24,000 nucleotides of DNA from an uncultured Oscillospiraceae bacterium (lineage in GTDB: Bacteria; Bacillota; Clostridia; Oscillospirales; Ruminococcaceae), in NCBI GenBank assembly GCA_934232845.1, contig CAKQGD010000014.1, positions 1 to 24,000 on the forward strand, in the 5' to 3' direction. A program made the position numbers and the translations under genes. The notes beneath the pieces were generated by a model, which searched no databases, was not told the origin of the DNA, and saw only the letters and a list, made by a program, of their open reading frames with translations. This document shows positions 1 through 19,459 of the stretch, piece after piece (position 1 is the first letter of the stretch; the number at the start of each line of letters is the position of its first letter).

Positions 1-1755
1 GATTATCTGATCGTACAGCATATGGAGCCGGATCATGCGGCGACTCTGCCCGACCTGCTGGTACGCTATCCAAAAGTACAAATTGTCTGCAGCGCCATGG
101 CGAAAAATATGATCGGCCAGTTTTTCGATTTTGGAGAGCTGCCGATCCGCACGGTGAAGGACGGGGACACGCTTGTTTCCGGCAGCCATACGCTGCGCTT
201 TCTGACCGCGCCGATGGTACATTGGCCCGAGGTGCTGATGACCTATGATGAGACGGCCAAGACACTCTTTTCCGCGGATGCGTTCGGCTCCTTCGGTGCG
301 CTCAACGGACGGCTTTTCGCCGATGAAATCGATTTTATGCGCGACGGTCTCGACGAGGCGCGCCGTTACTACACCAATATTGTCGGCAAGTACGGTGATC
401 AGGTGATGGCGGCTGCCGGCAAGCTTGCTTCGTTTGAGCTTTCCATGGTTTGTCCGCTGCACGGTTTTGTCTGGCGCAGGGGCTTTGGCGAACTGTTGGA
501 AAAATACATGAAATGGGCCTTGTACGAACCGGAAGAAAAGAGCGTATTGATTGCGTACGCCTCCGTCTACGGAAATACCGAAGCTGCGGCGAACCGCCTT
601 GCCTGTATGCTCGGTGAGCGCGGCGTCCGTGTGAGAATGTACGACACCTCCGTCACGCCTGCCTCTTATATTGTGGCGGATGCTTTCCGCTGCAGTCATC
701 TGGTCTTTGCTTCCACGACATATAACGCGGGTATTTTTGTTACGATGGAGCAGCTGCTGCATGATCTTGCCGCCCATGGTCTGAGAAACCGCCGTGTTGC
801 TCTGATTGAGAACGGCAGCTGGGCGCCGACAAGCGGCGCTCTGATGGAAAAACTGCTCTCGCCGCTCAAGGACTTCTCATTCGTGACGCAGCGCATCACG
901 GTCCGTTCCGGCGTAAAACCCGCGCAGGAGGAGCAGCTCTGCGCTTTGGCCGACGCGCTTGCCGCCGAGATTCTACCCGCCGCATCCGGCGGACAGATGC
1001 CGGTTTCCCTCGGAAAAGTCGAAAACGAGGCGTTTTTCAAGCTCTCCTATGGGCTGTTTGTTCTCTCCGCCCGGCAGAACGGCCGCGACAACGGCTGCAT
1101 TATCAACACCGCGATTCAGCTCACCGAGGACCCCAAGCGGATGCTGATCGCCGTCAACAAGGCAAACCACACCTGCGATATGATTCGCGAGACGGGGATA
1201 TTCTGCCTCTCTGCCCTGTCGGAGTCAACACCCTTCTCCGTGTTTCAGAATTTCGGCTTCCAGTCGGGACGCAGTGCGGATAAATTTGCGGCCGTCGCCG
1301 AGAAGCGCACTGCCGACGGCCTGCGTATTCTGCCTGAACATGCGTCGGCGTTTTTCTCCTGCCGCGTTGTCGATCAGAAAGACTACGGCACGCACACGCT
1401 CTTTGTAGCCGAGGTGACCGAGGCGGGCGTGCTTTCTGCCGAGGCTCCCGCGACATATGCCTATTACTTTGCCCACATTAAGCCGAAGCCTCAGCCTGCC
1501 GCTAAGCAGAAGACCGGATTCGTCTGCGAAATCTGCGGCTATGTGTACGAGGGAGAGACGCTGCCCCCCGATTTTATCTGTCCGCTGTGCAAGCACGATG
1601 TTGAGGCGTTTCGGCCTCTTGCACCCGCTGCGCCGAAGAAAAAGGGCTTTGTCTGCCGTATCTGCGGTTATGTGTATGAGGGAGACGTACTTCCGCCCGA
1701 CTTTACCTGCCCGCTGTGCAAGCACGGTGCGGAGGATTTTGAACCGCTGCCCTGA
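1..1755 (+). CDS. Flavodiiron protein (FprA-like), 5'-truncated by the window edge, fused C-terminally to a flavin-reductase-like domain and two rubredoxin domains
   Basis: Frame 1 is open from nt 1 (DYLIVQ precedes the listed Met). This places the diiron H-x-E-x-D-H motif HMEPDH at nt 19-36. Further FDP ligand contexts are PMVHWPE, LFSADAFG and CPLHG. A flavodoxin-like VLIAYASVYGNTEAAA starts near nt 541. A flavin-reductase-like block (FFKLSYGLFVLSARQNGRDNGCIINT...) spans about nt 1018-1489. Two CxxCG...CPxC rubredoxin modules lie at nt 1516-1752, and the stop is at 1753-1755. Confidence 0.85.
   Translation, partial: DYLIVQHMEPDHAATLPDLLVRYPKVQIVCSAMAKNMIGQFFDFGELPIRTVKDGDTLVSGSHTLRFLTAPMVHWPEVLMTYDETAKTLFSADAFGSFGALNGRLFADEIDFMRDGLDEARRYYTNIVGKYGDQVMAAAGKLASFELSMVCPLHGFVWRRGFGELLEKYMKWALYEPEEKSVLIAYASVYGNTEAAANRLACMLGERGVRVRMYDTSVTPASYIVADAFRCSHLVFASTTYNAGIFVTMEQLLHDLAAHGLRNRRVALIENGSWAPTSGALMEKLLSPLKDFSFVTQRITVRSGVKPAQEEQLCALADALAAEILPAASGGQMPVSLGKVENEAFFKLSYGLFVLSARQNGRDNGCIINTAIQLTEDPKRMLIAVNKANHTCDMIRETGIFCLSALSESTPFSVFQNFGFQSGRSADKFAAVAEKRTADGLRILPEHASAFFSCRVVDQKDYGTHTLFVAEVTEAGVLSAEAPATYAYYFAHIKPKPQPAAKQKTGFVCEICGYVYEGETLPPDFICPLCKHDVEAFRPLAPAAPKKKGFVCRICGYVYEGDVLPPDFTCPLCKHGAEDFEPLP
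1516..1752 (+). repeat. Tandem duplication of a rubredoxin-coding module (period 129 nt / 43 codons)
   Basis: GFVCEICGYVYEGETLPPDFICPLCKHDVEAFRPL (from nt 1516) aligns with GFVCRICGYVYEGDVLPPDFTCPLCKHGAEDFEPL (from nt 1645). By my count 27 of 35 residues are identical. The two copies are joined by the linker APAAPKKK. Confidence 0.85.
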
Positions 1756-1768
1756 ATAAAAAACGGGA

Positions 1769-1808
1769 CCGCCGCGCATCTGCTTTTGGATGTGCGGCGG
1801 TTTGATTT
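1769..1808 (+). terminator. Rho-independent terminator of the flavodiiron gene
   Basis: ccgccgcgcatc (1769-1780) pairs with gatgtgcggcgg (1789-1800), giving a 12-bp stem with one G-U pair and an 8-nt loop. It is followed by tttgattt. Confidence 0.7.
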
Positions 1809-1835
1809 GACAGCGCTTCGCCGCCGCGCTATAAT
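1807..1835 (+). promoter_or_regulatory. Sigma-A type promoter, perfect consensus
   Basis: TTGACA (1807-1812), a 17-nt spacer, then TATAAT (1830-1835). It lies about 75 nt upstream of the ynbB-like start. Confidence 0.65.
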
Positions 1836-1912
1836 CGGTGTCGTGTGAAAAGCCCCGAAAAGCGCGGAAAATCTGCCGCTGCGGGCTTGATCGAACAATG
1901 GGGGAAGAAGAA

Positions 1913-3190
1913 ATGGATAATACAATGCTTTCACAGCTCGGCGTCAGCGAAAAGGTCGCCGCGTTCGGAGAGGAGATTCTCTCCTCCCTTCGGGAGCGCT
2001 TTGAGGAAATCGACGCCGCCGCAGAATACAATCAATACAAGGTCATCGCGGCTATGCAGAAAAACCGCGTCAGCGCGGCCTGTTTTAATCCGTCTACGGG
2101 CTACGGCTATGACGATATGGGGCGCGATACGCTGGAAAAGGTCTACGCATCGTGCTTTCATACCGAGGCGGCGCTCGTTCGTCCTCAGATCACCTGCGGC
2201 ACGCATGCGCTCTGCATTGCGCTTTCAGCAAATCTGAGGCCCGGCGACGAGCTCCTTTCTCCGGTGGGCAAGCCCTACGATACGCTTGAAGAGGTGATCG
2301 GGATCCGTGACTGCCCCGGTTCGCTGAGGGAATACGGCGTTTCTTACCGGCAGGCCGACCTGCTGCCGGACGGAACGTTCGACTACGATGCGATCCGTGC
2401 CGCGATCAATGAAAAAACGCGCGTTGTGACGATTCAAAGGTCAAAGGGATATCAGACGCGTCCGTCCTTTTCGGTGGCACAGATCGGGGAGCTGATTTCG
2501 TTTGTAAAGAAGATCAAACCCTCGGTCATCTGTATGGTCGACAACTGCTACGGCGAGTTTGTCGAGAGGATAGAACCCTCCGACGTCGGCGCGGACATGA
2601 TCGTCGGCTCTCTTATCAAAAACCCCGGCGGCGGTCTGGCTCCGGCGGGAGGATATATCTGCGGTACGCAGGAGTGCGTCGAGCGCTGTGCATACCGCCT
2701 TACTTCACCCGGCTTGGGACGGGAGGTCGGCGCGAATCTCGGTACAATGCCCTCGTTTTACCAGGGATTTTTCCTTGCGCCCACGGTCGTAGCAGGTGCG
2801 CTCAAGGGCGCGATTTTTGCCGCGAATGTGTATGAAAAGCTTGGGTTTTCCGTGGTGCCCAACGGCTCAGAGAGCCGTCACGACATAATTCAGGCTGTCA
2901 CGCTGGGCTCCGCCGAAGCGATGCTGGCTTTCTGCCGGGGCATTCAGGCAGCCGCCCCGGTCGACAGCTATGTGACGCCGGAGGGGTACCCCATGCCCGG
3001 CTATGATTCCGACGTCGTGATGGCTGCGGGCGCGTTTATCCAAGGGTCGTCAATCGAGCTTTCGGCGGACGGCCCGATTCGTGAGCCCTATGCCGTCTAT
3101 TTTCAGGGCGGCCTGACGTGGTATCATGCGAAGCTCGGCATTCTGATGTCTTTGCAGAAGCTGGTCGAAAAAGGGATTGTTGAACTGTAA
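1913..3190 (+). CDS. ynbB: YnbB / 'aluminium resistance protein' family PLP-dependent enzyme (Met_gamma_lyase-like fold)
   Basis: Blocks I recognise from the B. subtilis YnbB family: STGYGYDDMGRDTLEKVYA, LVRPQITCGTHA, GKPYDTLEEVIG, IQRSKGYQTRPSF (likely the PLP lysine), VDNCYGEFVE, GSLIKNPGGG, AYRLTSPGLG, QGFFLAP and SIELSADGPIREPY. The start is set at the ATG at 1913, which follows GGGGGAAG. In-frame alternatives at 1898 and 1838 have no RBS. Confidence 0.85.
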   Translation: MDNTMLSQLGVSEKVAAFGEEILSSLRERFEEIDAAAEYNQYKVIAAMQKNRVSAACFNPSTGYGYDDMGRDTLEKVYASCFHTEAALVRPQITCGTHALCIALSANLRPGDELLSPVGKPYDTLEEVIGIRDCPGSLREYGVSYRQADLLPDGTFDYDAIRAAINEKTRVVTIQRSKGYQTRPSFSVAQIGELISFVKKIKPSVICMVDNCYGEFVERIEPSDVGADMIVGSLIKNPGGGLAPAGGYICGTQECVERCAYRLTSPGLGREVGANLGTMPSFYQGFFLAPTVVAGALKGAIFAANVYEKLGFSVVPNGSESRHDIIQAVTLGSAEAMLAFCRGIQAAAPVDSYVTPEGYPMPGYDSDVVMAAGAFIQGSSIELSADGPIREPYAVYFQGGLTWYHAKLGILMSLQKLVEKGIVEL

Positions 3191-4151: not shown

Positions 4152-5515
4152 ATGTGCAAAGATAAAACAGGGGAAAGAGAATCTGTTCTCTCTGCGGTAA
4201 AGCCTTCCAAGGCAATTGTGAGCCTCGCCGTTCCGGCTACTCTGGCTCTGCTGGCAAAAGCGATCTATAATATGTGGATACGGCGTATATCGGCATGCTG
4301 CACAGCGATGAAGCGCTGGCGGCGGTGGGCGTAACACTGCCTCTGCTTCTCATCATGGTTTCTGTGGAAAACATTTTCGCGGCGGGTGCTGCCGTTCTGG
4401 CGGGCCGCCAGCTCGGAGCCGGAGGAAAAGAGGATGCCAATCGCACGGTGACGACGATTGCGGCGCTTTCCATGATGATTGGAATTCTGCTGTGCGTATT
4501 GGGAATTGTGTTTATCGAGCCGCTTCTGAAAGGATTCGGCGCATCCGACGCCGTGCTGCCTCAGGCAAAGGATTATGCATTTTGGATGTTTGTTGCCGCG
4601 GTTTTCAACCTGCCTGCACAAAGTCTTAATTGCGCGGCGCGTGCGGAATCTTCCGTAAAAATCTCTTGCGGTCGGCGCGGCGCTCAACGTTCTTCTGGAT
4701 CCTGTGTTCATGTTTTCATGGGGATTGAATATGGGCGTAGAGGGAGCTTCTTTAGCTACGACAATTTCTCAGTGCGTTACTTTTGCAATTCTTGCATGGT
4801 TTTATCTTTCCGGGCGCTCTATTATCAAGATCAGACCGGAATACTTCAGCCCATCCCGCAGAATGGTGTGGGTTGTGGTGTCAATCGGCATTCCTACGGC
4901 GATTATACAAATCTGTCTTGCGGCGGCAACTTCTCTCACTAATATCGCGGTAAAGCCCTTGGCGGATTCCGATTTGATCATTGCCGCATATGGCGTGGTG
5001 CAGAGACTGATTCTGATAGGCTGTTATATCATTATGGGCTCTTTATGCAGGGCTATCAGCCGGTGGCGTCTTATGCCTACGGCGCAAGAAACGAAGAGCG
5101 TTTTCATGATTCGGTAAGATTTGCGATACGAGGAGCGCTGCTTTTGACGGCTATCGTTGAGGTAATTTATATTCTGCTTGCAGAGCCGCTGATTATGCTG
5201 TTTAATCAAAATCCCGCAGTGATTGAATATGGGCGCCTCCTGCTCATTTCTCAGGTGGCGATATATCCGGCGTTTGGCCTTTGCTATATGATGTCCATTA
5301 CTTTCCAAACAGTTGGAGCGTCAAAAATGGGTGTGTTTTTGTCACTGCTTCGCCAGGGACTGTTTTATATTCCGTTTATTTTAGTTCTGCCTAATCTTTT
5401 GGGAATCAAAGGCGTCTATCTTTCTCAGCCCTTCGCCGATGTGTTCACTATATTGGTGTGCGTATGCCTGATTAAGCCTATGAAGCGCATCGCCTCACGA
5501 AATATGTTCACTTAA
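4152..5515 (+). pseudogene. MATE family efflux transporter, disrupted by three single-nucleotide frameshifts
   Basis: MATE-like sequence is continuous only if four ORF pieces are joined. The pieces are 4152-4274 (frame 0), 4274-~4660 (frame 2), ~4662-~5042 (frame 0) and 5045-5515 (frame 2). The junctions read YNM|VDTAYIG (atgGtg collapsed to atgtg at 4274), SVK|SLAVGAALNVLLDP (A5 run at 4657-4661) and IIMG..F|MQGYQPV (T3 run at 5042-5044). The ATG at 4152 lies 1 nt after the tetR stop and is preceded by GGAG. Confidence 0.75.
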
Positions 5516-6701: not shown

Positions 6702-6722
6702 GAGGATCGTGTCAAGCTAAAA

Positions 6723-6750
6723 TCCGCCTTTGCAAAAAGACGGATTTTTT
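6723..6750 (+). terminator. Rho-independent terminator of corA
   Basis: tccgccttt (6723-6731) pairs with aaagacgga (6736-6744), giving 9 bp with one mismatch and a GCAA loop. It is followed by tttttt. Confidence 0.6.
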
Positions 6751-6858
6751 ACTTTAGATGTAAAAATGATAACTTTTGCGAATTTCCAAAAGCATCTTTT
6801 CGGTGAAAAAAGAAGACCGTTTTTCTTTTGGAAAAGACAAGGAAAAGGAAACTTCTCC

Positions 6859-6887
6859 TTGAATTTCGGGCATATATCCGATACAAT
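6859..6887 (+). promoter_or_regulatory. Candidate sigma-A promoter of the yjjI-yjjW-ABC unit
   Basis: TTGAAT (6859-6864), a 17-nt spacer, then TACAAT (6882-6887). It lies about 50 nt upstream of the ATG at 6936. Confidence 0.5.
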
Positions 6888-6935
6888 AAATACGTTGGAT
6901 ATATAAAAAATCCGATTATTTCAGGGGGGATCAGG

Positions 6936-8483
6936 ATGCGCCCGATTTCGATGGAAACCGTGGAAAAAAAGAGAGAAGAAATTTTGCGGGAAATCTGCAA
7001 TCGTCAGGAGAGCCACGAGCAGAAAGTGACTGCCCTTTCCCGTGCGGCGGAGAACTTTCTCACCGTGCTCGATGAACCCGAGGGTCTTGACGAACTGATG
7101 CGCTGCCCGCAGGAGGAACGCTGCATCTGCAATCTGTTTGAGGGAGACGCGCCCTACCGTCCGCGCTATATTGCTCCCGACTATGATAAATTTCTGCGGC
7201 AGGGAAGCCGTTTTCTTCAGCTTGAGCCGCCTCGTGATTTTGAAGAGGCGCTTAATTCGCTGATGATTTTGTACCACAACGTACCGAGTATTACGAACTA
7301 TCCCGTTTATATCGGCAGACTTGACCGCCTGCTGACGCCTTATCTCGACGGTGTGGACGACGAACGCGCCAAAAAAGCGCTGCGGCTGTTTTTCACCCAA
7401 ATCGACCGTACGATTTTGGATTCCTTCTGTCATGCAAATATCGGACCGGAACCGTCGCGCGCGGGCAGGCTGATTCTCGAGGCGGAGGGTGAACTGGAAA
7501 ACGCCGTGCCGAACCTCACCATGCTTGTGGATGAGGAAAAAACCACCGATGATTTTCTGCTTGATGGAATTCGCTGCGCCATGCACAGCGCCAAGCCGAG
7601 CTTTGCAAACGATAAAATGTTCCGAAAAGAGCTGGGCGGCGGTTATGTAATCGCCAGCTGCTACAACGGTCTGCTCGAGGGAGGCGGCAGCTATACGCTT
7701 TCCCGTCTGCTGCTTTCCGGGATTGCGAAGCGTTCGAAAAACCTGCGTGATTTCAAGGAAAATCAGCTGCCGCATGTCATGGACGTGATGGCGCGCTATA
7801 TGGATGAACGGATTCGCTTTATTGCACAGGATACCGGTTTCTTTGAGAGCAATTTCCTTTCGGTCGAGGGACTGATTCAGCGCGACCGCTTTACCGCGAT
7901 GTTCGGCATGGTGGGTCTTGCCGAGTGTGTAAATCTCCTTCTGGAGAAGGAGGGACGCGGCAATCTCCGCTTTGGCCGCGACGCCGAGGCCGATGATCTC
8001 GGCGTTGAGATCATCGAACAGATCGACGCATTTAACCGTGCGCATACAAATCCCTACTGCGGTGCGACAGGCGGACATTTTCTCCTGCATGCGCAGGTGG
8101 GACTGGCGGACGATCACAACATGAGTCCCGGCACGCGGATCCCGGTGGGAGAGGAACCCGCGCAGCTTGTGGACCATCTCAAACAGATCAATCGCTTCCA
8201 TAAATATTTCCCGTCCGGCACGGGTGATATTTTCCCGGTCGATTTGACGGTGCATCAAAATCCCGCGTTTGTGCTTGACCTCATCCGCGGCTCCTTCTCG
8301 CAGGAGATTCGCTATCTTTCTTTCTACCGCAGCGACAGCGACGTTGTGCGTGTGACGGGTTATCTCGTCAAACGCAGCGAAATCGAAAAGCTTGCCGCGG
8401 GAGAAAACGTCCGTCAGAATACCACGGGCCTCGGCTATGGAGCCATGCAGAACTGCAAGGCCTTCGACCGGCGGATCCGCTGA
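6936..8483 (+). CDS. yjjI: YjjI-family (DUF3029) putative glycyl radical enzyme
   Basis: At 515 aa from the ATG at 6936 (RBS GGGGGGA at 6924-6930) it matches the approximately 516 aa I recall for E. coli YjjI. The C-terminal motif VVRVTGYLV (Gly codon at 8358-8360, 40 residues from the end) fits the glycyl-radical fingerprint R-V-x-G-Y. A YjjW-type activase follows 2 nt downstream. Confidence 0.8.
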   Translation: MRPISMETVEKKREEILREICNRQESHEQKVTALSRAAENFLTVLDEPEGLDELMRCPQEERCICNLFEGDAPYRPRYIAPDYDKFLRQGSRFLQLEPPRDFEEALNSLMILYHNVPSITNYPVYIGRLDRLLTPYLDGVDDERAKKALRLFFTQIDRTILDSFCHANIGPEPSRAGRLILEAEGELENAVPNLTMLVDEEKTTDDFLLDGIRCAMHSAKPSFANDKMFRKELGGGYVIASCYNGLLEGGGSYTLSRLLLSGIAKRSKNLRDFKENQLPHVMDVMARYMDERIRFIAQDTGFFESNFLSVEGLIQRDRFTAMFGMVGLAECVNLLLEKEGRGNLRFGRDAEADDLGVEIIEQIDAFNRAHTNPYCGATGGHFLLHAQVGLADDHNMSPGTRIPVGEEPAQLVDHLKQINRFHKYFPSGTGDIFPVDLTVHQNPAFVLDLIRGSFSQEIRYLSFYRSDSDVVRVTGYLVKRSEIEKLAAGENVRQNTTGLGYGAMQNCKAFDRRIR

Positions 8484-8485
8484 GA

Positions 8486-9328
8486 ATGGAGACGGCTCTT
8501 GTCAATCGCATCCTGCCGTTTTCCTCGGTGGACGGCCCCGGCAACCGCACCGCCGTTTTTTTGCAGGGATGCAACTTCGACTGCCGATACTGCCATAACC
8601 CCGAGACGATCCGCTTGTGTGTGTCTTGCGGGGCATGTCTGCCGTATTGCAAAACAGGCGCGCTCTCGCTTCAAGACGGGCATGTGACCTACGACTTTTC
8701 CAAATGCGTCTTCTGCGACGAGTGCTTTCGGCATTGTCCGAACAGCAGCTCTCCCCGCGTGCGGCGGATGACCGCCGTTCAGGTGATGGACGAAGTGAAA
8801 AGAAATCTTCCCTTTATTCGGGGAATCACCGTTTCGGGCGGGGAATGCACACAGCAGCGGGATTTTCTTCTTGCGCTTCTTACCCTCGCCAAGGCGGAGG
8901 GACTCGGCACGCTGCTTGACTCCAACGGCAGCTATGATTTTTCCGCCGATCCCGCGCTTCTTGCGGTGACGGACGGCGTGATGCTCGACGTCAAGGCGTG
9001 GTCGCCCGACGAGCACCTGCGTATAACGGGACAGACAAACGCGATGGTGCGGCAGAACCTTTCCTTTCTTGCGGCGTCAGGCAAGCTGACAGAGGTGCGC
9101 ACCGTGATTGTGCCCGGCCTGTTCGATGTGCGCAAGACGGTCCGCGAGACGGCGCGTGCCATTGCCCCTTTCCTGTCTGTGGGAAACGTGCGCTGCAAGA
9201 TTATTCGCTACCGTCCGCAGGGGGTGCGCCCGGCGTACCGCAGCATGACAGAACCGGACGATGCGCTTCTTGCAGAGCTTCGCGCGCTTGCAGAACGCGA
9301 GGGCCTGCCCGATGTGGTGACAACCTGA
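8486..9328 (+). CDS. yjjW: YjjW-family glycyl radical enzyme activating enzyme (radical SAM)
   Basis: The N-terminus VDGPGNRTAVFLQGCNFDCRYCHNPET carries the radical-SAM CX3CX2C motif (C29/C33/C36). Two ferredoxin-like motifs follow: CVSCGACLPYC and CVFCDECFRHCP. There is also a GGEC block. The start lies 2 nt after the yjjI stop. Confidence 0.85.
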   Translation: METALVNRILPFSSVDGPGNRTAVFLQGCNFDCRYCHNPETIRLCVSCGACLPYCKTGALSLQDGHVTYDFSKCVFCDECFRHCPNSSSPRVRRMTAVQVMDEVKRNLPFIRGITVSGGECTQQRDFLLALLTLAKAEGLGTLLDSNGSYDFSADPALLAVTDGVMLDVKAWSPDEHLRITGQTNAMVRQNLSFLAASGKLTEVRTVIVPGLFDVRKTVRETARAIAPFLSVGNVRCKIIRYRPQGVRPAYRSMTEPDDALLAELRALAEREGLPDVVTT

Positions 9329-9378: not shown

Positions 9379-10929
9379 TTGACGCGGGAGGAAAGAATCG
9401 ACCGCTCTGTAAAAGTGGTCGAAATGAAAAAAATCGTCAAAAAATTCGGCGATTTTGTCGCGAACGACGGGATTGACCTGACCGTTTACAAGGGAGAAAT
9501 CCACGCGATTCTCGGTGAAAACGGTGCGGGAAAATCGACGCTGATGAATCAGCTTTACGGTTTGTACGCGCCGACGTCGGGTGAAATTTGGGCGAACGGA
9601 AAGCAGCTTGTAACCGACAGTCCCAGAAAAGCGATCGAAGCGGGCGTCGGCATGGTGCATCAGCACTTTATGCTGGTGCAGCCATTTACGGTGACGGAAA
9701 ACATCGTTCTCGGTGTGGAACCGCTGCACGGCATTTCTTTGGACATGGCGGCGGCTCGGAAAAATGTGGTTGAAATTTCCAAGCGCTATGGGCTTGACAT
9801 TGATCCGGATGCGAAAATTGAGGATATCTCCGTCGGAATGCAGCAGCGCGTCGAGATTCTCAAGGCGCTTTACCGCGGCGCCGAGATTCTGATTTTGGAC
9901 GAGCCGACTGCTTCCCTTACGCCGCAGGAAATTCATGAGCTGATCGAAATTCTGCACAACCTGACCGAGGACGGCAAATCTATTCTTTTGATTACGCATA
10001 AGCTCAAGGAAATCAAGGCTGTGGCGGATCGCTGCACGATCATCCGTCTTGGAAAATATATCGGCACGGTGGATGTGGAAACCGTGTCGGAAAGCGAGCT
10101 TGCCAGCATGATGGTGGGACGCAGCGTCACCTTTGAAGTGGAAAAGCCGGAGCAGAAGCCCGGAGACGTCGTGCTTGAGGTCAAGGACCTGCATGGCGTG
10201 GATTACCGCGGGGTAGAGATTCTGCGCGGACTGAACCTTACGGTTCGAAAAGGAGAAATTCTCGGCATCGCGGGCATCGACGGCAACGGGCAGACCGAGA
10301 TGGTCGAGATTATCACCGGCCTGCGGAAAGCGACCAAGGGTTCCGTATGCATCAATAAAACGGAGATCTGCAACAAACCGCCCCGCACAGGTTTTTTGGC
10401 GGGAGTGTCGAGCATACCGGCCGACCGGCAGAAGCACGGACTTGTGCTTGATTTTACGGTGGCCGAGAATATGGTTCTGCAGAATTTCCGCGAACCGCAG
10501 TTCCAGCGGCACGGTATTTTGAATAAAGACGCCATCCGCCGCTATACGCGGGAGGCCGTCGAAAAATACGACGTGCGCCCGCACGACTGCGTGGACAAGC
10601 TCGCGGGAACGCTTTCGGGCGGCAATCAGCAAAAAGTGATCATCGCCCGCGAGGTCAACAATGACAAAGACCTTCTGATTGCGGTGAATCCCACGCGCGG
10701 CCTTGACGTCGGCGCGATCGAATATGTGCATAAGTATATCGTGGAGCAGCGCAATAAAGGGAAAGCCGTTCTGCTCGTATCGTTTGAACTTGACGAGGTC
10801 ATGGGTCTTTCGGATCGCATCGACGTCATTTATGCCGGTAAAATTGTCGGCGAAATGGCAGGCTGCGACGCCGATGAGAACCGCCTTGGCCTGATGATGG
10901 CGGGAGGAGAACATCATGCAGAAGATTAA
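9379..10929 (+). CDS. ABC transporter ATP-binding protein with duplicated ATPase domains, BMP/nucleoside-uptake type (YufO/NupO/RnsB-like)
   Basis: The first Walker A is GENGAGKST, followed by GMVHQHFMLVQPFTVTENIVLG, which is characteristic of this subfamily. The second half has GIDGNGQTE, the signature LSGGNQQK and Walker B LLIAVNPTRGLD. The TTG start at 9379 lies 7 nt after AGGAGG (9366-9371). Confidence 0.85.
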   Translation: MTREERIDRSVKVVEMKKIVKKFGDFVANDGIDLTVYKGEIHAILGENGAGKSTLMNQLYGLYAPTSGEIWANGKQLVTDSPRKAIEAGVGMVHQHFMLVQPFTVTENIVLGVEPLHGISLDMAAARKNVVEISKRYGLDIDPDAKIEDISVGMQQRVEILKALYRGAEILILDEPTASLTPQEIHELIEILHNLTEDGKSILLITHKLKEIKAVADRCTIIRLGKYIGTVDVETVSESELASMMVGRSVTFEVEKPEQKPGDVVLEVKDLHGVDYRGVEILRGLNLTVRKGEILGIAGIDGNGQTEMVEIITGLRKATKGSVCINKTEICNKPPRTGFLAGVSSIPADRQKHGLVLDFTVAENMVLQNFREPQFQRHGILNKDAIRRYTREAVEKYDVRPHDCVDKLAGTLSGGNQQKVIIAREVNNDKDLLIAVNPTRGLDVGAIEYVHKYIVEQRNKGKAVLLVSFELDEVMGLSDRIDVIYAGKIVGEMAGCDADENRLGLMMAGGEHHAED

Positions 10930-11974
10930 ACGGCTGCTGGGCGGAAAATTCGCCCTGACGATTTTTTCGGTTCTCCTGTCTTTTCTGGTGGGTGCGATCT
11001 TTTTGACGATGATCGGGATTGACCCGATTGCGGCGTATCAAAAAATGATTGACGGCGCGGTCGGCTCCCGGAAAAATATCGCCTATTCCGTTGTGTATGC
11101 TTCTCCGCTGATTCTGGTGGGGCTTTCTGTGGCGTTTTCTTTCCGCACGGGTGTGTTCAACATCGGGGCGGAGGGACAGTTCGTCATGGGATCCATGGCC
11201 GCTTGTGTCGTGGGGATTCTCGTTCCGGCTCCGCCTGTGGTGCTGGTGCCTCTGTGCTTTCTGGCGGCGGCCGCCGCCGGCGCCCTGTGGGGGGTTCTCG
11301 TGGCTTTCTTAAAGACAAAATGGGGCATCAATGAGGTGCTGTCCATGATTATGTTCAACTGGATCGCCTTTTATCTTTCCAACTATATTGCGGGTCTGCC
11401 CGCAATTAAGACCGAAGGAAACGCCGAGGCGACCAAGAATGTGCAGGACGCCGCCCGTATCCTCTTTCCCGAAGCATGGAGAAAGGCGCTCTGTCCGACC
11501 TCAAACTGGGGCATTCTTCTCGCCGTAATCGCAGTGGCGGTGGTCTATATCATCATCGAGAAAACGACGCTCGGCTATCAGCTCAAGGCGGTCGGCTTCA
11601 ACCGCAGCGCCGCCGAGTACGGCGGCATCAACCCGAACCGTGCGATCATTACGGCGATTGCCATCTCCGGCGTGCTGGCCGGCCTCGGCGGTGCGGTGCA
11701 GCTGCTTGGCATGGGACAGCGCATCAGTATTTTTTCCGGACAGGAAGGCTTCGGCTTTCAGGGAATCAGCGTGGCGCTGATCGGTGCCTCGAACCCCATC
11801 GGTGTTCTCTTCGCGGGTCTGTTTTACGGCGCGCTGAAGTACGGAGGAAATAAGCTCAATCTGATCGGCGCGCCTTCCGAGGTGATCGATATCATCATGG
11901 GTACGGTCGTCTTCTTTATCGCGATTTCGCATGTATTTCGCTTTGTGCGGCATAAGAAAGGAGGAAAGGCGTAA
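10916..11974 (+). CDS. ABC transporter permease (YufP/NupP/RnsC-like)
   Basis: This is a polytopic membrane protein carrying FNIGAEGQF and GFNRSAAEYGGIN blocks typical of the first permease in BMP-type nucleoside/sugar importers. Its ATG overlaps the end of the ATPase gene by 14 nt, and GGAGGAG lies upstream. Confidence 0.8.
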   Translation: MQKIKRLLGGKFALTIFSVLLSFLVGAIFLTMIGIDPIAAYQKMIDGAVGSRKNIAYSVVYASPLILVGLSVAFSFRTGVFNIGAEGQFVMGSMAACVVGILVPAPPVVLVPLCFLAAAAAGALWGVLVAFLKTKWGINEVLSMIMFNWIAFYLSNYIAGLPAIKTEGNAEATKNVQDAARILFPEAWRKALCPTSNWGILLAVIAVAVVYIIIEKTTLGYQLKAVGFNRSAAEYGGINPNRAIITAIAISGVLAGLGGAVQLLGMGQRISIFSGQEGFGFQGISVALIGASNPIGVLFAGLFYGALKYGGNKLNLIGAPSEVIDIIMGTVVFFIAISHVFRFVRHKKGGKA

Positions 11975-12915
11975 TGGATAGCTTTATCAATAATCTTGGC
12001 GTTGTGCTCTATGCGACGCTGGTGTATACGCCTCCGCTGCTTTTTGCCGCGCTCGGCTCCTGCTTTTCCGAAAACAGCGGCATCGTGAATATCGGTATCG
12101 AGGGCATGATGACGATCGGCGCGTTCACGGGAGCCTGCATCGGGCACTTCACCGGCATGCCGTGGATTTCGTTTCTCTGCGCCGGGCTTGCGGGCGCGGC
12201 CTTCGGCGCGCTGCATGCTTTTGCCACGGTCAAGCTGAACGCCGACCAGACCATTTCCGGCACGGCGATCAATTTCCTTGCGCCGGGCGTTGCGCTTCTG
12301 ATGGCGAAAGCACTGTTTAATTCCTCCGACACGCCGGCGCTTTCCGATGCGAAGCTGCCGCGCCTGTTCACCTCTGTCTTTGAGGGAGGTTCGGTGGGAG
12401 CGAATTTTCTGAAAAACATCTTTGTCAACTATGCGTCGACCTACCTTGTGTTTCTGGTCGTCGTGCTGGTTTGGTTCGTGTTTTACAAAACGCGCTTCGG
12501 CCTGCGTCTGCGCGCCTGCGGTGAGCACCCCAAGGCATGCGATACGCTGGGCATCAACGTACAAAGAATGCGTTTCACCTGCGTGGTGATCTCCGGCTTT
12601 CTGGCCGGTCTCGGCGGTGCATGCGTTACGATGGCGACGATGAATCAGTTTCGGCCGACGTCTATTGTGGGACAGGGCTTTATCGCAATCGCCGCGGTGA
12701 TTTTCGGTAAGTTCCGCCCGCAGGGCGCGATGATGGCATGCCTGCTCTTTGGCATGTGCACCGGTCTCAAGGTCGTACTCGGTTCGAACGCGGTGATTTC
12801 TTCGCAGCTGATCTCCATGATCCCGTATGCGGTTACGGTTGTGGTGCTGATTCTGTTTGTCGGCAAGTCTCATGTTCCCGCCGCAAACGGAAAGCCCTAC
12901 GTCAAGAGCCGCTGA
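11974..12915 (+). CDS. ABC transporter permease (YufQ/NupQ/RnsD-like)
   Basis: It has VNIGIEGMM and RACGEHPKACDTLGINV blocks typical of the second permease. The ATG overlaps the upstream TAA (taATGg), and AGGAGGAAAGG lies upstream. Confidence 0.8.
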   Translation: MDSFINNLGVVLYATLVYTPPLLFAALGSCFSENSGIVNIGIEGMMTIGAFTGACIGHFTGMPWISFLCAGLAGAAFGALHAFATVKLNADQTISGTAINFLAPGVALLMAKALFNSSDTPALSDAKLPRLFTSVFEGGSVGANFLKNIFVNYASTYLVFLVVVLVWFVFYKTRFGLRLRACGEHPKACDTLGINVQRMRFTCVVISGFLAGLGGACVTMATMNQFRPTSIVGQGFIAIAAVIFGKFRPQGAMMACLLFGMCTGLKVVLGSNAVISSQLISMIPYAVTVVVLILFVGKSHVPAANGKPYVKSR

Positions 12916-12967
12916 ATCGGTTTGGTAAGAAAAGCGATTCTCATTTTTAAGCAGCCGCAAAACAATT

Positions 12968-13000
12968 TAGCGGCGGGTTTCTTACCCGCCGCTAATTCTT
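12968..13000 (+). terminator. Rho-independent terminator of the ABC operon
   Basis: tagcggcgggt (12968-12978) pairs perfectly with acccgccgcta (12984-12994), giving 11 bp and a 5-nt loop. It is followed by the T-rich attcttt. Confidence 0.6.
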
Positions 13001-13286: not shown

Positions 13287-14345
13287 TCAGGTTTTATAAA
13301 GAGGAATTCCTTCCACCGTGGTAAGATACCGAATCAGCAGTGCGGCGACCGGCATTAAGAAAATGCCCCATACGCCGATCACTTTCAGACCGATGAACAT
13401 GGCGGACAGCGTTACCACGGGGTGGAGACCCAGCTGATCCCCGACGATGCGCGGCTCAATAATGTTGCGGATCACCGTAATCGCCGCGTAGAGCAGAATA
13501 AGCCCCACGCCTGTGCCGGCAGTGCCTGCGATCAGATGATAAAGCGCCCATGGAATCAGAATAGCGCCGGAGCCGAGCAGCGGAAGAATATCCAAAACGG
13601 CCGTCAGTGCCGCAATGCTCAGGGCATTTTCAATCTTCAGGAAAGAAAGCCCGATGGAAAGCTCTGCAAAAGTGACGATCATAATGATCAGATAGGCACG
13701 CACCAGCCGAAAAAGGCAAGAGGTCAAAAAGTTCTTAATATCAAGAATGAGCGGCTGCGCCCGTTTGGGGATTTGACGCATTAAAAATCCCGTGATGCGG
13801 GTATAGTCCATACAGATGTAGAACGAGGATACGATCATAAAAACGAAACCAATTAAGAACATAGGAAAGCCCTTGACAGCACCGGTTACGGTTGAGATAA
13901 GCCATGACGACAAGGAGGAGACCACATCTGTCATCGCGCTGGAGAGAACGTCAAAAATTTCGGATAGAGACAGCGCAAAGGCGGGGGCAAGTGCCTGCAG
14001 CCACTCCACCGTCTGATCTCCAAGGCTTTGCAGGGCCGGCAGCAGGCTGTCGCGGAAAAAAACAGGAAAGGACTGCGCCGCGCCGATTATACGCTCCACG
14101 GTAAAAACCGCTATGCCCCAGAACGCGAGAATGACCAGTGCGTAAAACAGTACGGCAATTACGGCGACCGGAGCCCCGCCGCGGATTTTCAGCCGGCGGG
14201 AAATATGTTTAAACAGATAGGCGAGGGCAAAGCCTCCGAGAAAAGGCCAGATGAGCGGTACAGCGAATTTTAAAGTACATAATACAAGGAGAACGATTAC
14301 TGCCCAAAAACAAAAATTCTGTAAAAAACAAATGCGTTTTTCCAT
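13287..14345 (-). CDS. AI-2E family transporter / sporulation integral membrane protein YtvI-like (UPF0118)
   Basis: It has eight or so hydrophobic segments and the family-typical C-terminal block IRNIIEPRIVGDQLGLHPVVTLSAMFIGLKVIGVWG. The RBS AAGGAG lies 8 nt upstream of the ATG at 14345. Confidence 0.7.
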   Translation of the reverse strand: MEKRICFLQNFCFWAVIVLLVLCTLKFAVPLIWPFLGGFALAYLFKHISRRLKIRGGAPVAVIAVLFYALVILAFWGIAVFTVERIIGAAQSFPVFFRDSLLPALQSLGDQTVEWLQALAPAFALSLSEIFDVLSSAMTDVVSSLSSWLISTVTGAVKGFPMFLIGFVFMIVSSFYICMDYTRITGFLMRQIPKRAQPLILDIKNFLTSCLFRLVRAYLIIMIVTFAELSIGLSFLKIENALSIAALTAVLDILPLLGSGAILIPWALYHLIAGTAGTGVGLILLYAAITVIRNIIEPRIVGDQLGLHPVVTLSAMFIGLKVIGVWGIFLMPVAALLIRYLTTVEGIPLYKT

Positions 14346-14563
14346 AAAACCGCTCCTTTCGGGGTGACGTCTCGGACAAAGGAGAAGAAAATGCCGACCG
14401 CAGAGAAGCTTTTCACGCGGAGCATTTTACGCTGCGCATCGGGAAAATAGTCTCTTTTGTAAAATAGATGAAAACCTGAATCAGACAAATGATTATCCTT
14501 ATTATATCCGTTATTTTTTAAGAAATTAAGCCTTTTGAGGAAAAAATATTGTGAAGAAAAGAC

Positions 14564-14592
14564 TTGCAGAAAATCGATTTCCTGTGTATAGT
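14564..14592 (+). promoter_or_regulatory. Candidate sigma-A promoter of the ACT-hom-thrB-ask operon
   Basis: TTGCAG (14564-14569), a 17-nt spacer, then TATAGT (14587-14592). It lies about 40 nt upstream of the ATG at 14634. Confidence 0.5.
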
Positions 14593-14633
14593 GTATTTTA
14601 TAGAAAAACAATCGTGCATGAGAGGTGGAAAAA

Positions 14634-15077
14634 ATGTGGGAAGAACCGAAATATCTGGTTGTGGAAAGTCAAGCCCTGCCGGATGTCTTTGTAAAGGTTG
14701 TATACGCCAAGCATCTTTTAGAGAGCGGCACCACAGGAAATATTTCCCTTGCGGCAAAAATGGCGGGAATTTCCCGCAGCGCAATCTATAAGTACCGGGA
14801 CGCGGTATTTCCGTATGTCAGCGAGATGTCGGGCAAGGTTGTCAGTCTCTATGTCGTGATGCACGACAGACCGGGAATGCTTTCGCGCGTGATCCATACT
14901 CTGTACGAAAACGGCGCGAATATTTTGACAATCAACCAGAACATTCCCGTCGATGGCATGGCGGCGGTATCTCTGTCTGTTTCGCTGGATGCGGCTGCGG
15001 CCAGCGACATGGATCTGCTCAACGCGCTGAAAAACCTCGGCGATGTGGCTGAGGTTAGAAGGCTGGTCGGAAGATAA
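14634..15077 (+). CDS. UPF0735 ACT domain-containing protein (PheB-like)
   Basis: An N-terminal helix-turn-helix-like segment (ISLAAKMAGISRSAIYKYRD) is followed by an ACT fold (VSLYVVMHDRPGMLSRVIHTLYENGANILTINQ). The start is set at the ATG at 14634, 8 nt after AGAGG. The listed start at 14625 is GTG and sits inside the RBS. Confidence 0.75.
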   Translation: MWEEPKYLVVESQALPDVFVKVVYAKHLLESGTTGNISLAAKMAGISRSAIYKYRDAVFPYVSEMSGKVVSLYVVMHDRPGMLSRVIHTLYENGANILTINQNIPVDGMAAVSLSVSLDAAAASDMDLLNALKNLGDVAEVRRLVGR

Positions 15078-15169
15078 CATACTTTTTTGCGGGTCTTGCC
15101 CGCGCAGAATAATTTTACAGACCGCTTTGCCTCGGCTGTGCGGTTCTGACGAAGAATTGGAGGAAAACC

Positions 15170-16381
15170 ATGAAGGTTGCAATCGTAGGCTTCGGAGTTG
15201 TCGGCTCCGGCGTGGCCGAGGTTCTCCGCGATAACGCGGAGGCGATCCGCCGCAGGTGCGGATTCCCCCTCGAACTGGGATATATCGTCGATCTCCGCTG
15301 TCCCAAAGGAGAATGGGCCAAGTACTGGACGACCGACTTTGGCACGGTGCTCTCCGATCCGGATGTCGGCGTTGTAGCGGAAGCAATCGGAGGGCTTCAT
15401 CCCGCATATGATTTTACAAAAGCGGCGCTTGATTCGGGCCGTCATGTGGTGACGTCAAATAAAGAACTGGTCTCTGCGCTTGGCACAGAGCTTCTGGCGG
15501 CAGCAAAAGCGCACAACGTCAACTATTTTTTTGAAGCGAGCGTGGGCGGAGGGATTCCGCTGCTGCAGCCTCTGGCGCGTCTGCTCGGTACGGAGCGCAT
15601 CACGGACGTGGCCGGTATTCTCAACGGCACAACGAATTTTATCATGACGCGCATGAATGAAGACAGGATGTCCTTTGACGACGCATTGGCTCTTGCACAG
15701 AAAAACGGTTATGCGGAGGCGGATCCCAGCGCGGATATCGAAGGACACGACGCCTGCCGAAAGACGGCAATTCTTGCTTCGCTGCTTTTGGGCAGACATG
15801 TGTCTCCCGAAGACGTATATACCGAGGGAATCACGAAGCTGACCGCACGGGACGCTGCGGCTGCGGCCGCGCATGGCTTGGCGATCAAACTGCTTGGACA
15901 GATCCGCCTGCGCGGAGAGGAAGTCTCGGCGCAGGTTACGCCCGCTCTTGTTTCGGAGAAAAGCCCCCTCGGCGTGACGAAGGATGTATTCAACGCGGTG
16001 CAGGCGCGCGGCGTTCATCTCGGCGATGCGATGTTTTACGGACGGGGCGCGGGCAAGCTGCCCACAGCGAACGCCGTTGTGTCCGATCTGGTCGAGGCGG
16101 TCTGTGCCGGGGGACATTGCTCGTTCTTTGACTGGGAAAAGGGTCCGGCTTGTGTCAAAAATGCGGCGATGGAGGAATTTATCTGGATGCTCCGCGTCCC
16201 GAAGGAGGATGCCGAGCCTGCCGCAGAGTTGTTCGGTACGCAGACGAATGGAAAGGATACGGACGGGGAGGCCGTTCTGTTCACAATGAAGCTTTCTGCG
16301 GCGCGCGTATATAAGCTGCGAAGCCAGGCACAGGCGCGCGGCGTCGAGATTCGTTCGGCTCTGCGCGTGTTCGAGCTTTGA
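15170..16381 (+). CDS. hom: Homoserine dehydrogenase
   Basis: The N-terminus has the Rossmann motif MKVAIVGFGVVGSGV. Other family blocks are VVTSNKELV, FEASVGGGIP, ILNGTTNFI, AQKNGYAEADPSADIEGHDA and MFYGRGAG. Confidence 0.9.
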   Translation: MKVAIVGFGVVGSGVAEVLRDNAEAIRRRCGFPLELGYIVDLRCPKGEWAKYWTTDFGTVLSDPDVGVVAEAIGGLHPAYDFTKAALDSGRHVVTSNKELVSALGTELLAAAKAHNVNYFFEASVGGGIPLLQPLARLLGTERITDVAGILNGTTNFIMTRMNEDRMSFDDALALAQKNGYAEADPSADIEGHDACRKTAILASLLLGRHVSPEDVYTEGITKLTARDAAAAAAHGLAIKLLGQIRLRGEEVSAQVTPALVSEKSPLGVTKDVFNAVQARGVHLGDAMFYGRGAGKLPTANAVVSDLVEAVCAGGHCSFFDWEKGPACVKNAAMEEFIWMLRVPKEDAEPAAELFGTQTNGKDTDGEAVLFTMKLSAARVYKLRSQAQARGVEIRSALRVFEL

Positions 16382-16397
16382 AAGGGGAAACACCGGC

Positions 16398-17303
16398 ATG
16401 ATTACAGTCAAAATTCCGGCTACCAGTGCGAATGTGGGATCCGGTTTTGATTCCCTTGGATTGGCACTGACGCTCTATAACGAGATCACCGTGGAGAAGA
16501 GCGACCGTCTTCTGATCGAATCTTTGGATGATACGCCTGTGCCGCAGGGAGAGGACAATCTGATTTATACGGCGATGCGCGGGCTGTACCGGCAGTGCGG
16601 AGAAAAGATTCCGGCGCTTCATATCCGTCAGATCAATCGAATCCCTATGTCAAGAGGGCTTGGCAGCAGCTCCGCCTGCATTGTCGGCGGCCTTTTGGCG
16701 GCGAATGCTCTTCTGGGCTCGCCTCTCACGCGGCAGCAGCTTCTCAACACCGCGGCAAAGATCGAGGGACATCCCGACAATGTGGCTCCGGCCCTGCTCG
16801 GCGGATTTGTCTGCGCTGTGATAGAGGGCGCGCAGGTTCGCTGGGTTCGGCAGGATCTTCGGCCCGATCTGCGTTTTGCGGCGCTGATTCCCAATTTTGA
16901 GCTCTCCACTTCTGTGGCACGCAGCGTTCTCCCGCGGGAAATACCGCACCGTGACGCGGTCTACAACTTGTCGAGAGCGGCGCTGATGAGCATGTCGCTT
17001 GCCGCGGGCCGCTACGAAAATCTTTCTGCCGCATCGGGCGACCGTCTGCATCAGCCGTACCGTCTGCGGCTGATTACCGGGGCAGAAGAGGCTCTGGGCA
17101 TTCTTCATGCACAGGGTGCGTACTGTTCTTATATCAGCGGCGCGGGATCGACTCTAATGGCGATGGTTCCGGCGGCAGACGAGGCTTTCTTTGAGCGCAC
17201 GCGCCGGGAACTGGATACCGCAGGCTTTTCACAATGGAGTCTGCTGATGCTTGACGCCGACAACGCGGGCGCGGTCTGCACAGAGATGCAGAAAGAAAAA
17301 TAA
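16398..17303 (+). CDS. thrB: Homoserine kinase
   Basis: VKIPATSANVGSGFDSLGLAL and the GHMP kinase motif PMSRGLGSSSA are present, along with EGHPDNVAPALLGG. Confidence 0.9.
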   Translation: MITVKIPATSANVGSGFDSLGLALTLYNEITVEKSDRLLIESLDDTPVPQGEDNLIYTAMRGLYRQCGEKIPALHIRQINRIPMSRGLGSSSACIVGGLLAANALLGSPLTRQQLLNTAAKIEGHPDNVAPALLGGFVCAVIEGAQVRWVRQDLRPDLRFAALIPNFELSTSVARSVLPREIPHRDAVYNLSRAALMSMSLAAGRYENLSAASGDRLHQPYRLRLITGAEEALGILHAQGAYCSYISGAGSTLMAMVPAADEAFFERTRRELDTAGFSQWSLLMLDADNAGAVCTEMQKEK

Positions 17304-17338
17304 AAAATGAATTCAACCGGAAAGGAGCGGTTTTTGCT

Positions 17339-19456: not shown

Positions 19457-19459
19457 GAA

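Follow-up and report, generated by a model that had tools for sequence, protein, structure and literature searches.

Organization of the yjjI-yjjW locus

We analysed a 24,000-nucleotide stretch of DNA from an uncultured Oscillospiraceae bacterium (contig CAKQGD010000014.1, positions 1 to 24,000; "the window"), which carries on its plus strand a gene of the yjjI family (6936..8483) and, after a gap of 2 nt, a gene of the yjjW family (8486..9328). The first-pass annotation had described the two products as a glycyl radical enzyme (GRE) and its radical S-adenosylmethionine (SAM) activase. yjjI and yjjW open a unit of five genes, with no terminator separating them from the three that follow. These encode an ATP-binding cassette (ABC) importer ATPase of 516 aa with two ABC_tran domains (9379..10929, plus strand), recognized by profile matches, and two permeases with BPD_transp_2 domains, of 352 aa (10916..11974, plus strand) and 313 aa (11974..12915, plus strand). 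In relatives, the same genes are found at positions +2, +3 and +4 from yjjI. From its sequence, the importer is predicted to be of the BMP/PnrA ABC type. A strong bidirectional terminator-like hairpin with a 12-bp stem that includes eight G-C pairs (12967..12995) closes the unit.

The yjjI gene starts at ATG 6936 and ends with a TGA codon (8481-8483) inside a plus-strand open reading frame (ORF) that spans 6828-8483; the same start was chosen by gene callers on near-identical contigs. Ahead of the ATG lie a putative G-rich ribosome-binding site (6923-6929, plus strand) and a promoter-like site, TTGAAT-17-TACAAT (6859..6887, plus strand), identified solely by its match to the consensus. Upstream of the promoter-like site is the terminator-like hairpin of the preceding gene, corA (about 6720-6751). 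Position 6859, given previously as the start of the gene, is not a start codon; it coincides with the promoter-like -35 hexamer. At Rfam gathering thresholds, neither the window nor five related loci showed a riboswitch or other known RNA ahead of the operon. An inverted repeat of 8 bp that spans the -10 box (6874-6902) was discounted: relatives do not conserve it, and some 11 matches as loose as this one turn up in 2.5 Mb.

The 515-aa product of the first gene matched PF11230 (YjjI-like, DUF3029) with 703.9 bits (E = 1e-211; cut-off 23) and TIGR04040 with 653.2 bits against a curated whole-protein cut-off of 498.3, covering profile positions 3-497 of 497, and is 43% identical to E. coli YjjI (b4380) over its full length. 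The 280-aa product of the second gene, which starts at ATG 8486, matched TIGR04041 with 340.8 bits (curated cut-off 250.2), gave Radical_SAM and Fer4 matches in Pfam, and is 40% identical to E. coli YjjW (b4379), again over its full length. The three profile searches recommended in the first-pass annotation (TIGR04040, TIGR04041 and PF11230) thus all scored above their cut-offs. By these scores, the family assignments of both genes are unambiguous, and the window locus is a further member of a known, annotated family, relatives of which are found in at least 598 species-representative genomes. With the E. coli pair it shares adjacent genes, full-length homology, a YjjI length of ~515 aa, and the RVTGY and S-C-Y-N loops described below.

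The motif VVRVTGYLV occupies YjjI residues 470-478 (8343..8369, plus strand), with Gly475 exactly 40 residues from the C-terminus, as had been read from the sequence. The threonine ahead of the glycine had been singled out as a departure from the PROSITE glycyl-radical pattern, which has Cys, Ser or Ala at this position. The threonine is indeed present; across 20 diverse YjjI representatives, however, the loop reads R-[VI]-[TS]-G-[YF], indicating that this residue is typical of the family. The statement that YjjI is much smaller than GREs of the pyruvate formate-lyase (PFL) type also stands (515 versus about 800 aa).

All activase motifs named earlier are found in YjjW: the radical-SAM motif CX3CX2C (CNFDCRYC, residues 29-36, nt 8570-8593) and two ferredoxin-like CxxCxxCxxxC motifs, CVSCGACLPYC (residues 45-55, nt 8618-8650) and CVFCDECFRHC (residues 74-84, nt 8705-8737). 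The E. coli protein has the same set. YjjW is closest to activases of eliminase-type GREs (TIGR02494, 144 bits; HypD activase model, 141 bits), carries a ferredoxin insert, and fell below the cut-offs of the NrdG models (46 and 84 bits; cut-offs 126 and 131, respectively). Hence, on its motifs and scores, it resembles the two-ferredoxin-cluster, PflC/eliminase-like activases rather than NrdG. We consider it almost certain that yjjI and yjjW encode a functional GRE-activase pair.

To our knowledge, YjjI, an oxygen-sensitive radical enzyme, is the last E. coli GRE without a reaction. In agreement with the earlier statement on this point, literature searched by title and abstract assigns no reaction to YjjI, and searches with DUF3029, PF11230, TIGR04040, YjjW, 7X0R, and glycyl radical with DeoC and nucleoside yielded no functional assignment. 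RefSeq names the E. coli K-12 protein "DUF3029 domain-containing protein YjjI". The PDB holds no sequence relative of YjjI (phmmer returned chance matches only) and no YjjI structure by Foldseek; a search of the PDB with the family profile gave nothing significant, the sole marginal match being YbiW (E = 1.5).

Predicted fold and candidate catalytic residues

Modelling of YjjI with AlphaFold from 79 aligned homologues, which represent two clades, gave a mean predicted local distance difference test (pLDDT) score of 91.8 and a predicted template modelling (pTM) score of 0.91. The model's 14 best Foldseek matches in the PDB are all class III ribonucleotide reductases (RNRs), with E-values of 1e-15 to 2e-14 and query-normalised TM-scores of 0.57-0.73 (P. 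copri, S. thermophilus and phage T4 NrdD). The next matches, with TM-scores of about 0.6, are PFL-like GREs: proline-derivative dehydratases, PflD/YbiW, CutC, glycerol and propanediol dehydratases, and benzylsuccinate synthase. The fold predicted for YjjI is thus the GRE barrel and, together with the curated cut-offs passed by both proteins, it bears out the original assignment to GRE and activase families. By DSSP, S241-C242-Y243 forms the tip of a hairpin of strands 237-240 and 244-247 in the model, and T474-G475 the tip of a hairpin of strands 470-473 and 476-479. This arrangement of Cys242 and Gly475 would correspond to the two finger loops typical of GREs.

The thiyl-radical cysteine had been left as a choice between the cysteines of VIASCYNG (Cys242) and NPYCGATGG (Cys375). 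We counted conservation in 97 full-length YjjI homologues from three clades (about 20 clusters at 50% identity). S241 and C242 are invariant (97/97), Y243 and N244 are each present in 96 of the 97, and Cys242 is the sole universally conserved cysteine. Cys375 is found in only 65 homologues and is missing from E. coli YjjI, and we reject it. Conservation and the hairpin position, with a low-confidence alignment to NrdD Cys384, support Cys242 as the catalytic cysteine, and S241-C242-Y243-N244 (7656..7667, plus strand) as the proposed thiyl-radical site. Other invariant polar residues are E69, R77, Y78, D130, D157, H166, N193, T203, R257, E311, R401 and R512.

Given that the closest structures are those of class III RNRs, we considered whether YjjI is a divergent NrdD-like anaerobic RNR that makes deoxynucleoside triphosphates for DNA synthesis. 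NrdD acts on the ribose 2',3'-diol. Both proteins have a C-terminal R-V-x-G-Y loop and a cysteine finger loop at the corresponding position: the YjjI glycyl loop aligns with NrdD RRVCG681YLG, and in a low-confidence profile alignment (probability 1.4%) Gly475 pairs with E. coli NrdD Gly681 and C242 with Cys384. In contrast to NrdD, YjjI is about 100-200 residues shorter and has neither an ATP-cone nor the four-Cys zinc ribbon that precedes the NrdD glycine loop; residues 376-515 hold Cys507 only. E. coli NrdD reads FNC175ML and PM382GC384R; YjjI reads IASC242YN, with no Met, and by the low-confidence alignment and the 97 homologues neither Met382 nor the bottom-face Cys175 has a conserved YjjI counterpart. 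Invariant Tyr78 falls at the Cys175 position when the same alignment (1.4%) is read by eye without gaps; no tool made this call. A role for Cys65 as a second redox cysteine of the NrdD kind is not supported: the first two clades have it without exception, but overall it is present in 90 of the 97 homologues (His, Asp, Tyr or Phe in the other seven), and it is not aligned with Cys175. The lack of NrdD-type Cys and Met residues argues against a copy of the NrdD mechanism. In addition, YjjI scores 20.0 bits against Pfam NRDD (partial region; cut-off 26.2), the activase is of the PflC/eliminase type, with 46 bits against the 126-bit NrdG cut-off, the gene context is catabolic (see below), and E. 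coli has a genuine nrdDG besides yjjI. We regard a role in dNTP synthesis as extremely improbable.

A second possibility is that YjjI is a redox-neutral GRE 1,2-eliminase or dehydratase that acts on a nucleoside-derived sugar or sugar phosphate, with the keto product handled by enzymes encoded elsewhere. The anhydro-sugar-phosphate dehydratases YbiW/PflD provide the analogy. YjjI shares with the PFL-like eliminases (YbiW/PflD, glycerol and propanediol dehydratases, CutC and HypD) the barrel fold, a K/M-P-x-F-x-N-D motif and a strand-small-Cys loop; the P-x-F-x-N-D motif precedes both the YVIASCYN of YjjI and the YAAIGCIE of E. coli YbiW. The marginal YbiW match in the PDB, the single universally conserved cysteine and the similarity of YjjW to the two-ferredoxin-cluster activases of these enzymes, which are the most similar to it, point the same way. 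However, the eliminases are about 800 aa long, YjjI is below threshold for PF02901 (PFL-like; 22.4 bits, cut-off 24.3), and the Glu of the eliminase G-C-x-E motif (G-C441-I-E in YbiW) is replaced by Asn244 in 96 of 97 homologues, which argues against a standard dehydratase. The operons described below also lack a conserved partner enzyme for a keto-deoxy product. We view an eliminase as possible but unlikely. YjjI is neither a class III RNR nor of the PFL type, and forms a third, compact branch of this superfamily.

Conserved association with nucleoside genes

We examined gene order around yjjI in 80 species-representative genomes whose YjjI is 53-77% identical to that of the window (out of at least 598 genomes with relatives), and, with the window and E. 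coli added, at 82 loci in all. Neighbouring ORFs were chosen by conservation across loci and then clustered. yjjW is at +1 at 75 of 82 loci. The ABC ATPase cluster is at +2 in 56 of the 80 genomes (57/82 loci), and the permeases are at +3 and +4 in about 55. At position -1, 53 of the 80 genomes have a gene for a Bmp/PnrA-family lipoprotein of 366 aa (PF02608, 273 bits). Thus, in 53-56 of 80 species, yjjI-yjjW sits between the binding-protein and ATPase genes of the importer. Within 10 kb of yjjI we found genes for cytidine deaminase (cdd; 32 loci), a DeoD-type phosphorylase (29), DeoC (19), the phosphopentomutase DeoB (17), adenosine deaminase (add; 15), a Crp/Fnr-like regulator (13), pyrimidine-nucleoside phosphorylase (Pdp; 6), uridine kinase (Udk; 6) and PunA (5). 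Several of the contigs stop close to yjjI, so that these are minimum numbers. Apart from the transporter, regulators and YjjI itself, all recurrent operon genes have nucleoside-metabolism annotations, mostly catabolic. We conclude that the pair belongs to a conserved type of nucleoside-uptake and catabolism operon, and hence is not contextless.

Palindromes of the TGTTAACA type are found about 100-200 nt upstream of the gene that opens the operon at four related loci, with no equivalent in the window. This first gene is the binding-protein gene at three loci (L002, L005 and L006) and yjjI itself at the fourth (L014). The palindromes may be an operator candidate for some regulator.

The binding protein encoded by operons of this type matches Lbp of Clostridium thermocellum (PDB 7X0R) with E = 4e-126. 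Lbp was once called a laminaribiose-binding protein; its crystal density fits guanosine, its guanosine contacts resemble those of the Treponema pallidum nucleoside receptor PnrA, and a mutant in transporter L retains growth on laminaribiose (PMC9601137). The legend to Figure 1 of that study names "hp" and "rsam" genes among the clusters (PMC9601137); we infer that hp, which was not studied there, is the YjjI gene. Searching with the Lbp sequence identified two metagenome loci with a 100%-identical Lbp, at which the genes are ordered PNP-family phosphorylase, Lbp, YjjI (PF11230, 758 bits), YjjW-like radical SAM protein, ATPase, permease, permease, cdd and deoC. YjjI of this transporter L operon is 63% identical to that of the window, and the ATPase and permeases are 56-71% identical; as in the Clostridia sample, YjjI and YjjW are encoded between binding protein and ATPase. 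By contrast, the window has no Lbp-type binding protein, upstream PNP-family gene, or downstream cdd and deoC. By analogy with Lbp, the importer may carry nucleosides. Among 59 Lbp-type loci with enough downstream sequence, yjjI directly follows the binding-protein gene at 32, and the other 27 have the same operon without yjjI-yjjW, so that the pair behaves as a two-gene insert that operons for nucleoside uptake and catabolism may have or lack.

Enterobacterales provide independent support for the nucleoside context. The E. coli K-12 pair forms a unit of two genes, oriented divergently from deoCABD, unlike the window pair, which heads a BMP-type ABC importer operon. In Edwardsiella, yjjI is likewise divergent from deoCABD, and a gene for a NupC-family (CNT) nucleoside transporter is convergent with it just downstream. 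At another enterobacterial locus (L114), a NupC-family gene lies 70 nt upstream of yjjI on the same strand. Taken with the BMP-type ABC importers, these neighbours link two non-homologous families of nucleoside transporter to YjjI in two phyla.

One 574-aa E. coli protein record (P0124), from a 2.9-kb contig, has PF11230 (YjjI) and DeoC domains together. In E. coli, yjjI lies next to deoC in divergent orientation, so this fusion is probably an artefact of assembly or gene calling.

Expression studies bear on a different possibility, namely that YjjI functions outside nucleoside metabolism, for example in the anaerobic metabolism of nitrogen or nitrate or in some other step of fermentation, and that its site in nucleoside operons is a lineage-specific accident. 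The E. coli yjjI operon is directly activated by FNR (PMC3688515), and yjjI of Yersinia intermedia is induced 4.3-fold anaerobically (PMC3792023). A 2011 co-expression study tied E. coli yjjI to nitrate and nitrogen metabolism: in E. coli and Salmonella, yjjI co-clusters with narG and has an FNR-like motif (PMC3228777). "Nitrogen metabolism" is the only functional proposal for YjjI in the literature that we searched (PMC3228777). A function of this kind would also fit the clades in which the pair stands alone, and the variants of the window locus, described below, that drop the transporter and keep yjjI-yjjW. However, FNR control, which any GRE is expected to show, does not point to nitrogen metabolism in particular, the pair is precisely inserted between binding-protein and ATPase genes in 53 species, and BMP-type ABC, NupC and deo genes adjoin it in two phyla. 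We therefore consider a function outside nucleoside metabolism rather unlikely.

An atypical locus and its strain variants

The window differs from the common arrangement in the region upstream of yjjI, where corA takes the place of the binding-protein gene. CorA is rejected as a functional partner: it forms a singleton cluster, is found at this position in this lineage only, and has its own terminator-like hairpin. tblastn of the 24-kb window found no trace of the binding protein (Bmp, PF02608), cdd, deoD, deoB, deoC, add or pdp. At 87% identity, the closest distinct relative retains PNP-DeoB-Cdd-Bmp upstream; the window copy is atypical in that it has lost the binding-protein and flanking cdd/deo genes. 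The corA-yjjI junction also occurs in two independent human-gut assemblies (L199 and L200) that are 99.4% identical to the window, and is therefore not an assembly artefact.

These two assemblies join window position 10228 to 12507, a 2.28-kb deletion between TCTGCGCG direct repeats that removes the 3' part of the ATPase gene, permease 1 and most of permease 2, and leaves yjjI-yjjW intact. Relative to the window, they have two residue differences in YjjI and three in YjjW. With the transporter deleted and YjjI/YjjW nearly unchanged, the pair is kept without its usual importer in this lineage. Comparison of the window with these variants provided too few substitutions to detect purifying selection (synonymous, 2/4 in yjjI and 3/6 in yjjW). 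Two further strain polymorphisms lie ahead of yjjI: a 20-nt indel ahead of the promoter-like site (6788-6807), and a G6/G7 run-length difference in the ribosome-binding site (6924).

Loss of the binding-protein, cdd and deo genes, of which tblastn found no trace in 24 kb, raises the possibility that yjjI-yjjW in this genome is a decaying, functionless remnant. The transporter-deletion variants and a frameshifted neighbouring MatE gene are compatible with decay. Nonetheless, the two ORFs have their full length and all residues that are invariant in the family, the pair has a promoter-like site and a ribosome-binding site of its own, and both ORFs are intact in three independent assemblies with only two and three amino acid changes. 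Decay thus seems very improbable.

Proposed function

We consider that the observations are best explained overall by an intact YjjI/YjjW pair, encoded in a five-gene importer unit, that carries out radical chemistry on a nucleoside or pentose phosphate, an explanation that we hold to be somewhat better than even. The broader proposal that YjjI acts in nucleoside or pentose metabolism is, in our estimate, modestly favoured. Within it, our best reading of YjjI is an accessory radical enzyme in the anaerobic use of nucleosides, with ribose as the probable point of attack.

Based on established GRE and radical-SAM biochemistry, the [4Fe-4S] cluster bound by the CX3CX2C motif of YjjW, fed by the two ferredoxin-like clusters, would reductively cleave SAM, and the resulting 5'-deoxyadenosyl radical would take a hydrogen atom from Gly475, which lies in YjjI's RVTGY finger loop. 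The glycyl radical would then generate a thiyl radical on Cys242 in the S-C-Y-N loop, the residue that conservation supports for this role, and the thiyl radical would take a hydrogen atom from the substrate. Gene context and fold suggest that the substrate may be an imported guanosine-type ribonucleoside, or a pentose phosphate released from one, and that an RNR-like attack on the ribose 2',3'-diol may lead to C2'-O cleavage, with the product re-entering the route through the phosphorylase, DeoB and DeoC.

Since the recurrent operon genes are nucleoside-metabolic, the product of YjjI is probably a substrate of the enzymes that they encode. This favours a ribo-to-deoxyribo conversion, which would let DeoC, the only carbon-cleaving enzyme of the operon, take ribonucleosides. 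Our preferred specific version, to which we nevertheless give a low probability, is a formate-dependent ribo-to-deoxyribo conversion (2'-deoxygenation), with formate the likely reductant; redox-neutral dehydration or elimination ranks next. It is similarly conceivable, on a low estimate, that YjjI is a ribose-directed radical enzyme of a new kind, a compact, unregulated relative of anaerobic RNR that acts on free nucleosides or pentose phosphates and not on nucleoside triphosphates.

Several points weigh against a nucleoside function or against particular forms of it. The substrate proposed here is deduced from gene context and fold. The 80 Clostridia loci are mutually related and are those closest to the window YjjI, so their synteny may be partly inherited. 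yjjI-yjjW stands alone, with no nucleoside genes, in Proteus, in Providencia and in all four sampled genomes of the Tepidibacter/Alkaliphilus/Lutispora clade. The absence of the pair from 27 of 59 Lbp-type operons implies that it is dispensable for uptake and catabolism. The window itself has no detectable binding-protein, cdd or deo genes, its close variants have lost most of the importer with the pair intact, and the published co-expression data tie yjjI to nitrate and nitrogen metabolism. Against the reductase version stand the missing Cys175 and Met382 counterparts and the incomplete conservation of Cys65 (90/97); against the eliminase version stands Asn244 at the position of the G-C-x-E Glu.

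At one locus with a lone yjjI-yjjW pair (L194), PfkB kinase and Indigoidine_A genes lie ~5 kb downstream (13328-15327). These resemble a pseudouridine kinase and glycosidase pair, which would be nucleoside-related, and their proximity is possibly a coincidence.

Other features of the window

The MatE-family efflux gene upstream of yjjI (4274-5515, plus strand) is broken into at least three reading frames. It has a 2-nt insertion (5039-5040) relative to L199 and L200, in which a continuous 261-aa ORF is called; the split gene is likely a pseudogene or a sequencing error. At the start of the window (22-3190, plus strand) are genes for a 577-aa multidomain protein, with flavodiiron-like, flavodoxin, flavin reductase and rubredoxin parts, and then for a PF06838 methionine-gamma-lyase-like PLP enzyme. 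Downstream of the importer unit lies a threonine-pathway cluster, unrelated to yjjI-yjjW (14625-18547, plus strand), that encodes an ACT-domain protein, homoserine dehydrogenase, homoserine kinase and aspartate kinase. On the minus strand (18680-23977) are a complete glutamate synthase large subunit gene (1505 aa, four GltB domains) and then a 258-aa small-subunit-like ORF, which looks truncated, since it covers positions 29-243 of the 485-position small-subunit model.

Significance

YjjI is widespread in gut anaerobes, and the window enzyme pair is ordinary for such an organism; its value is that an open question becomes directly testable. The insertion of the pair into nucleoside operons, the guanosine-bound Lbp, the NupC and deoCABD linkage and the RNR-like fold together narrow the hunt for a substrate to a small number of compounds. 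To judge from the searchable literature, the hypothesis of a nucleoside substrate for this long-standing orphan enzyme is unpublished. If YjjI carries out radical chemistry on nucleosides, it would represent a new GRE reaction, and nucleosides derived from RNA and DNA would have a new route of anaerobic use in the gut. If the reaction is 2'-deoxygenation, it would be a previously unknown class of GRE reaction and a fourth context for ribose 2'-deoxygenation. Formate-driven removal of the 2'-hydroxyl would, in that case, pass RNA-derived ribonucleosides through DeoB and DeoC to glyceraldehyde-3-phosphate and acetaldehyde.

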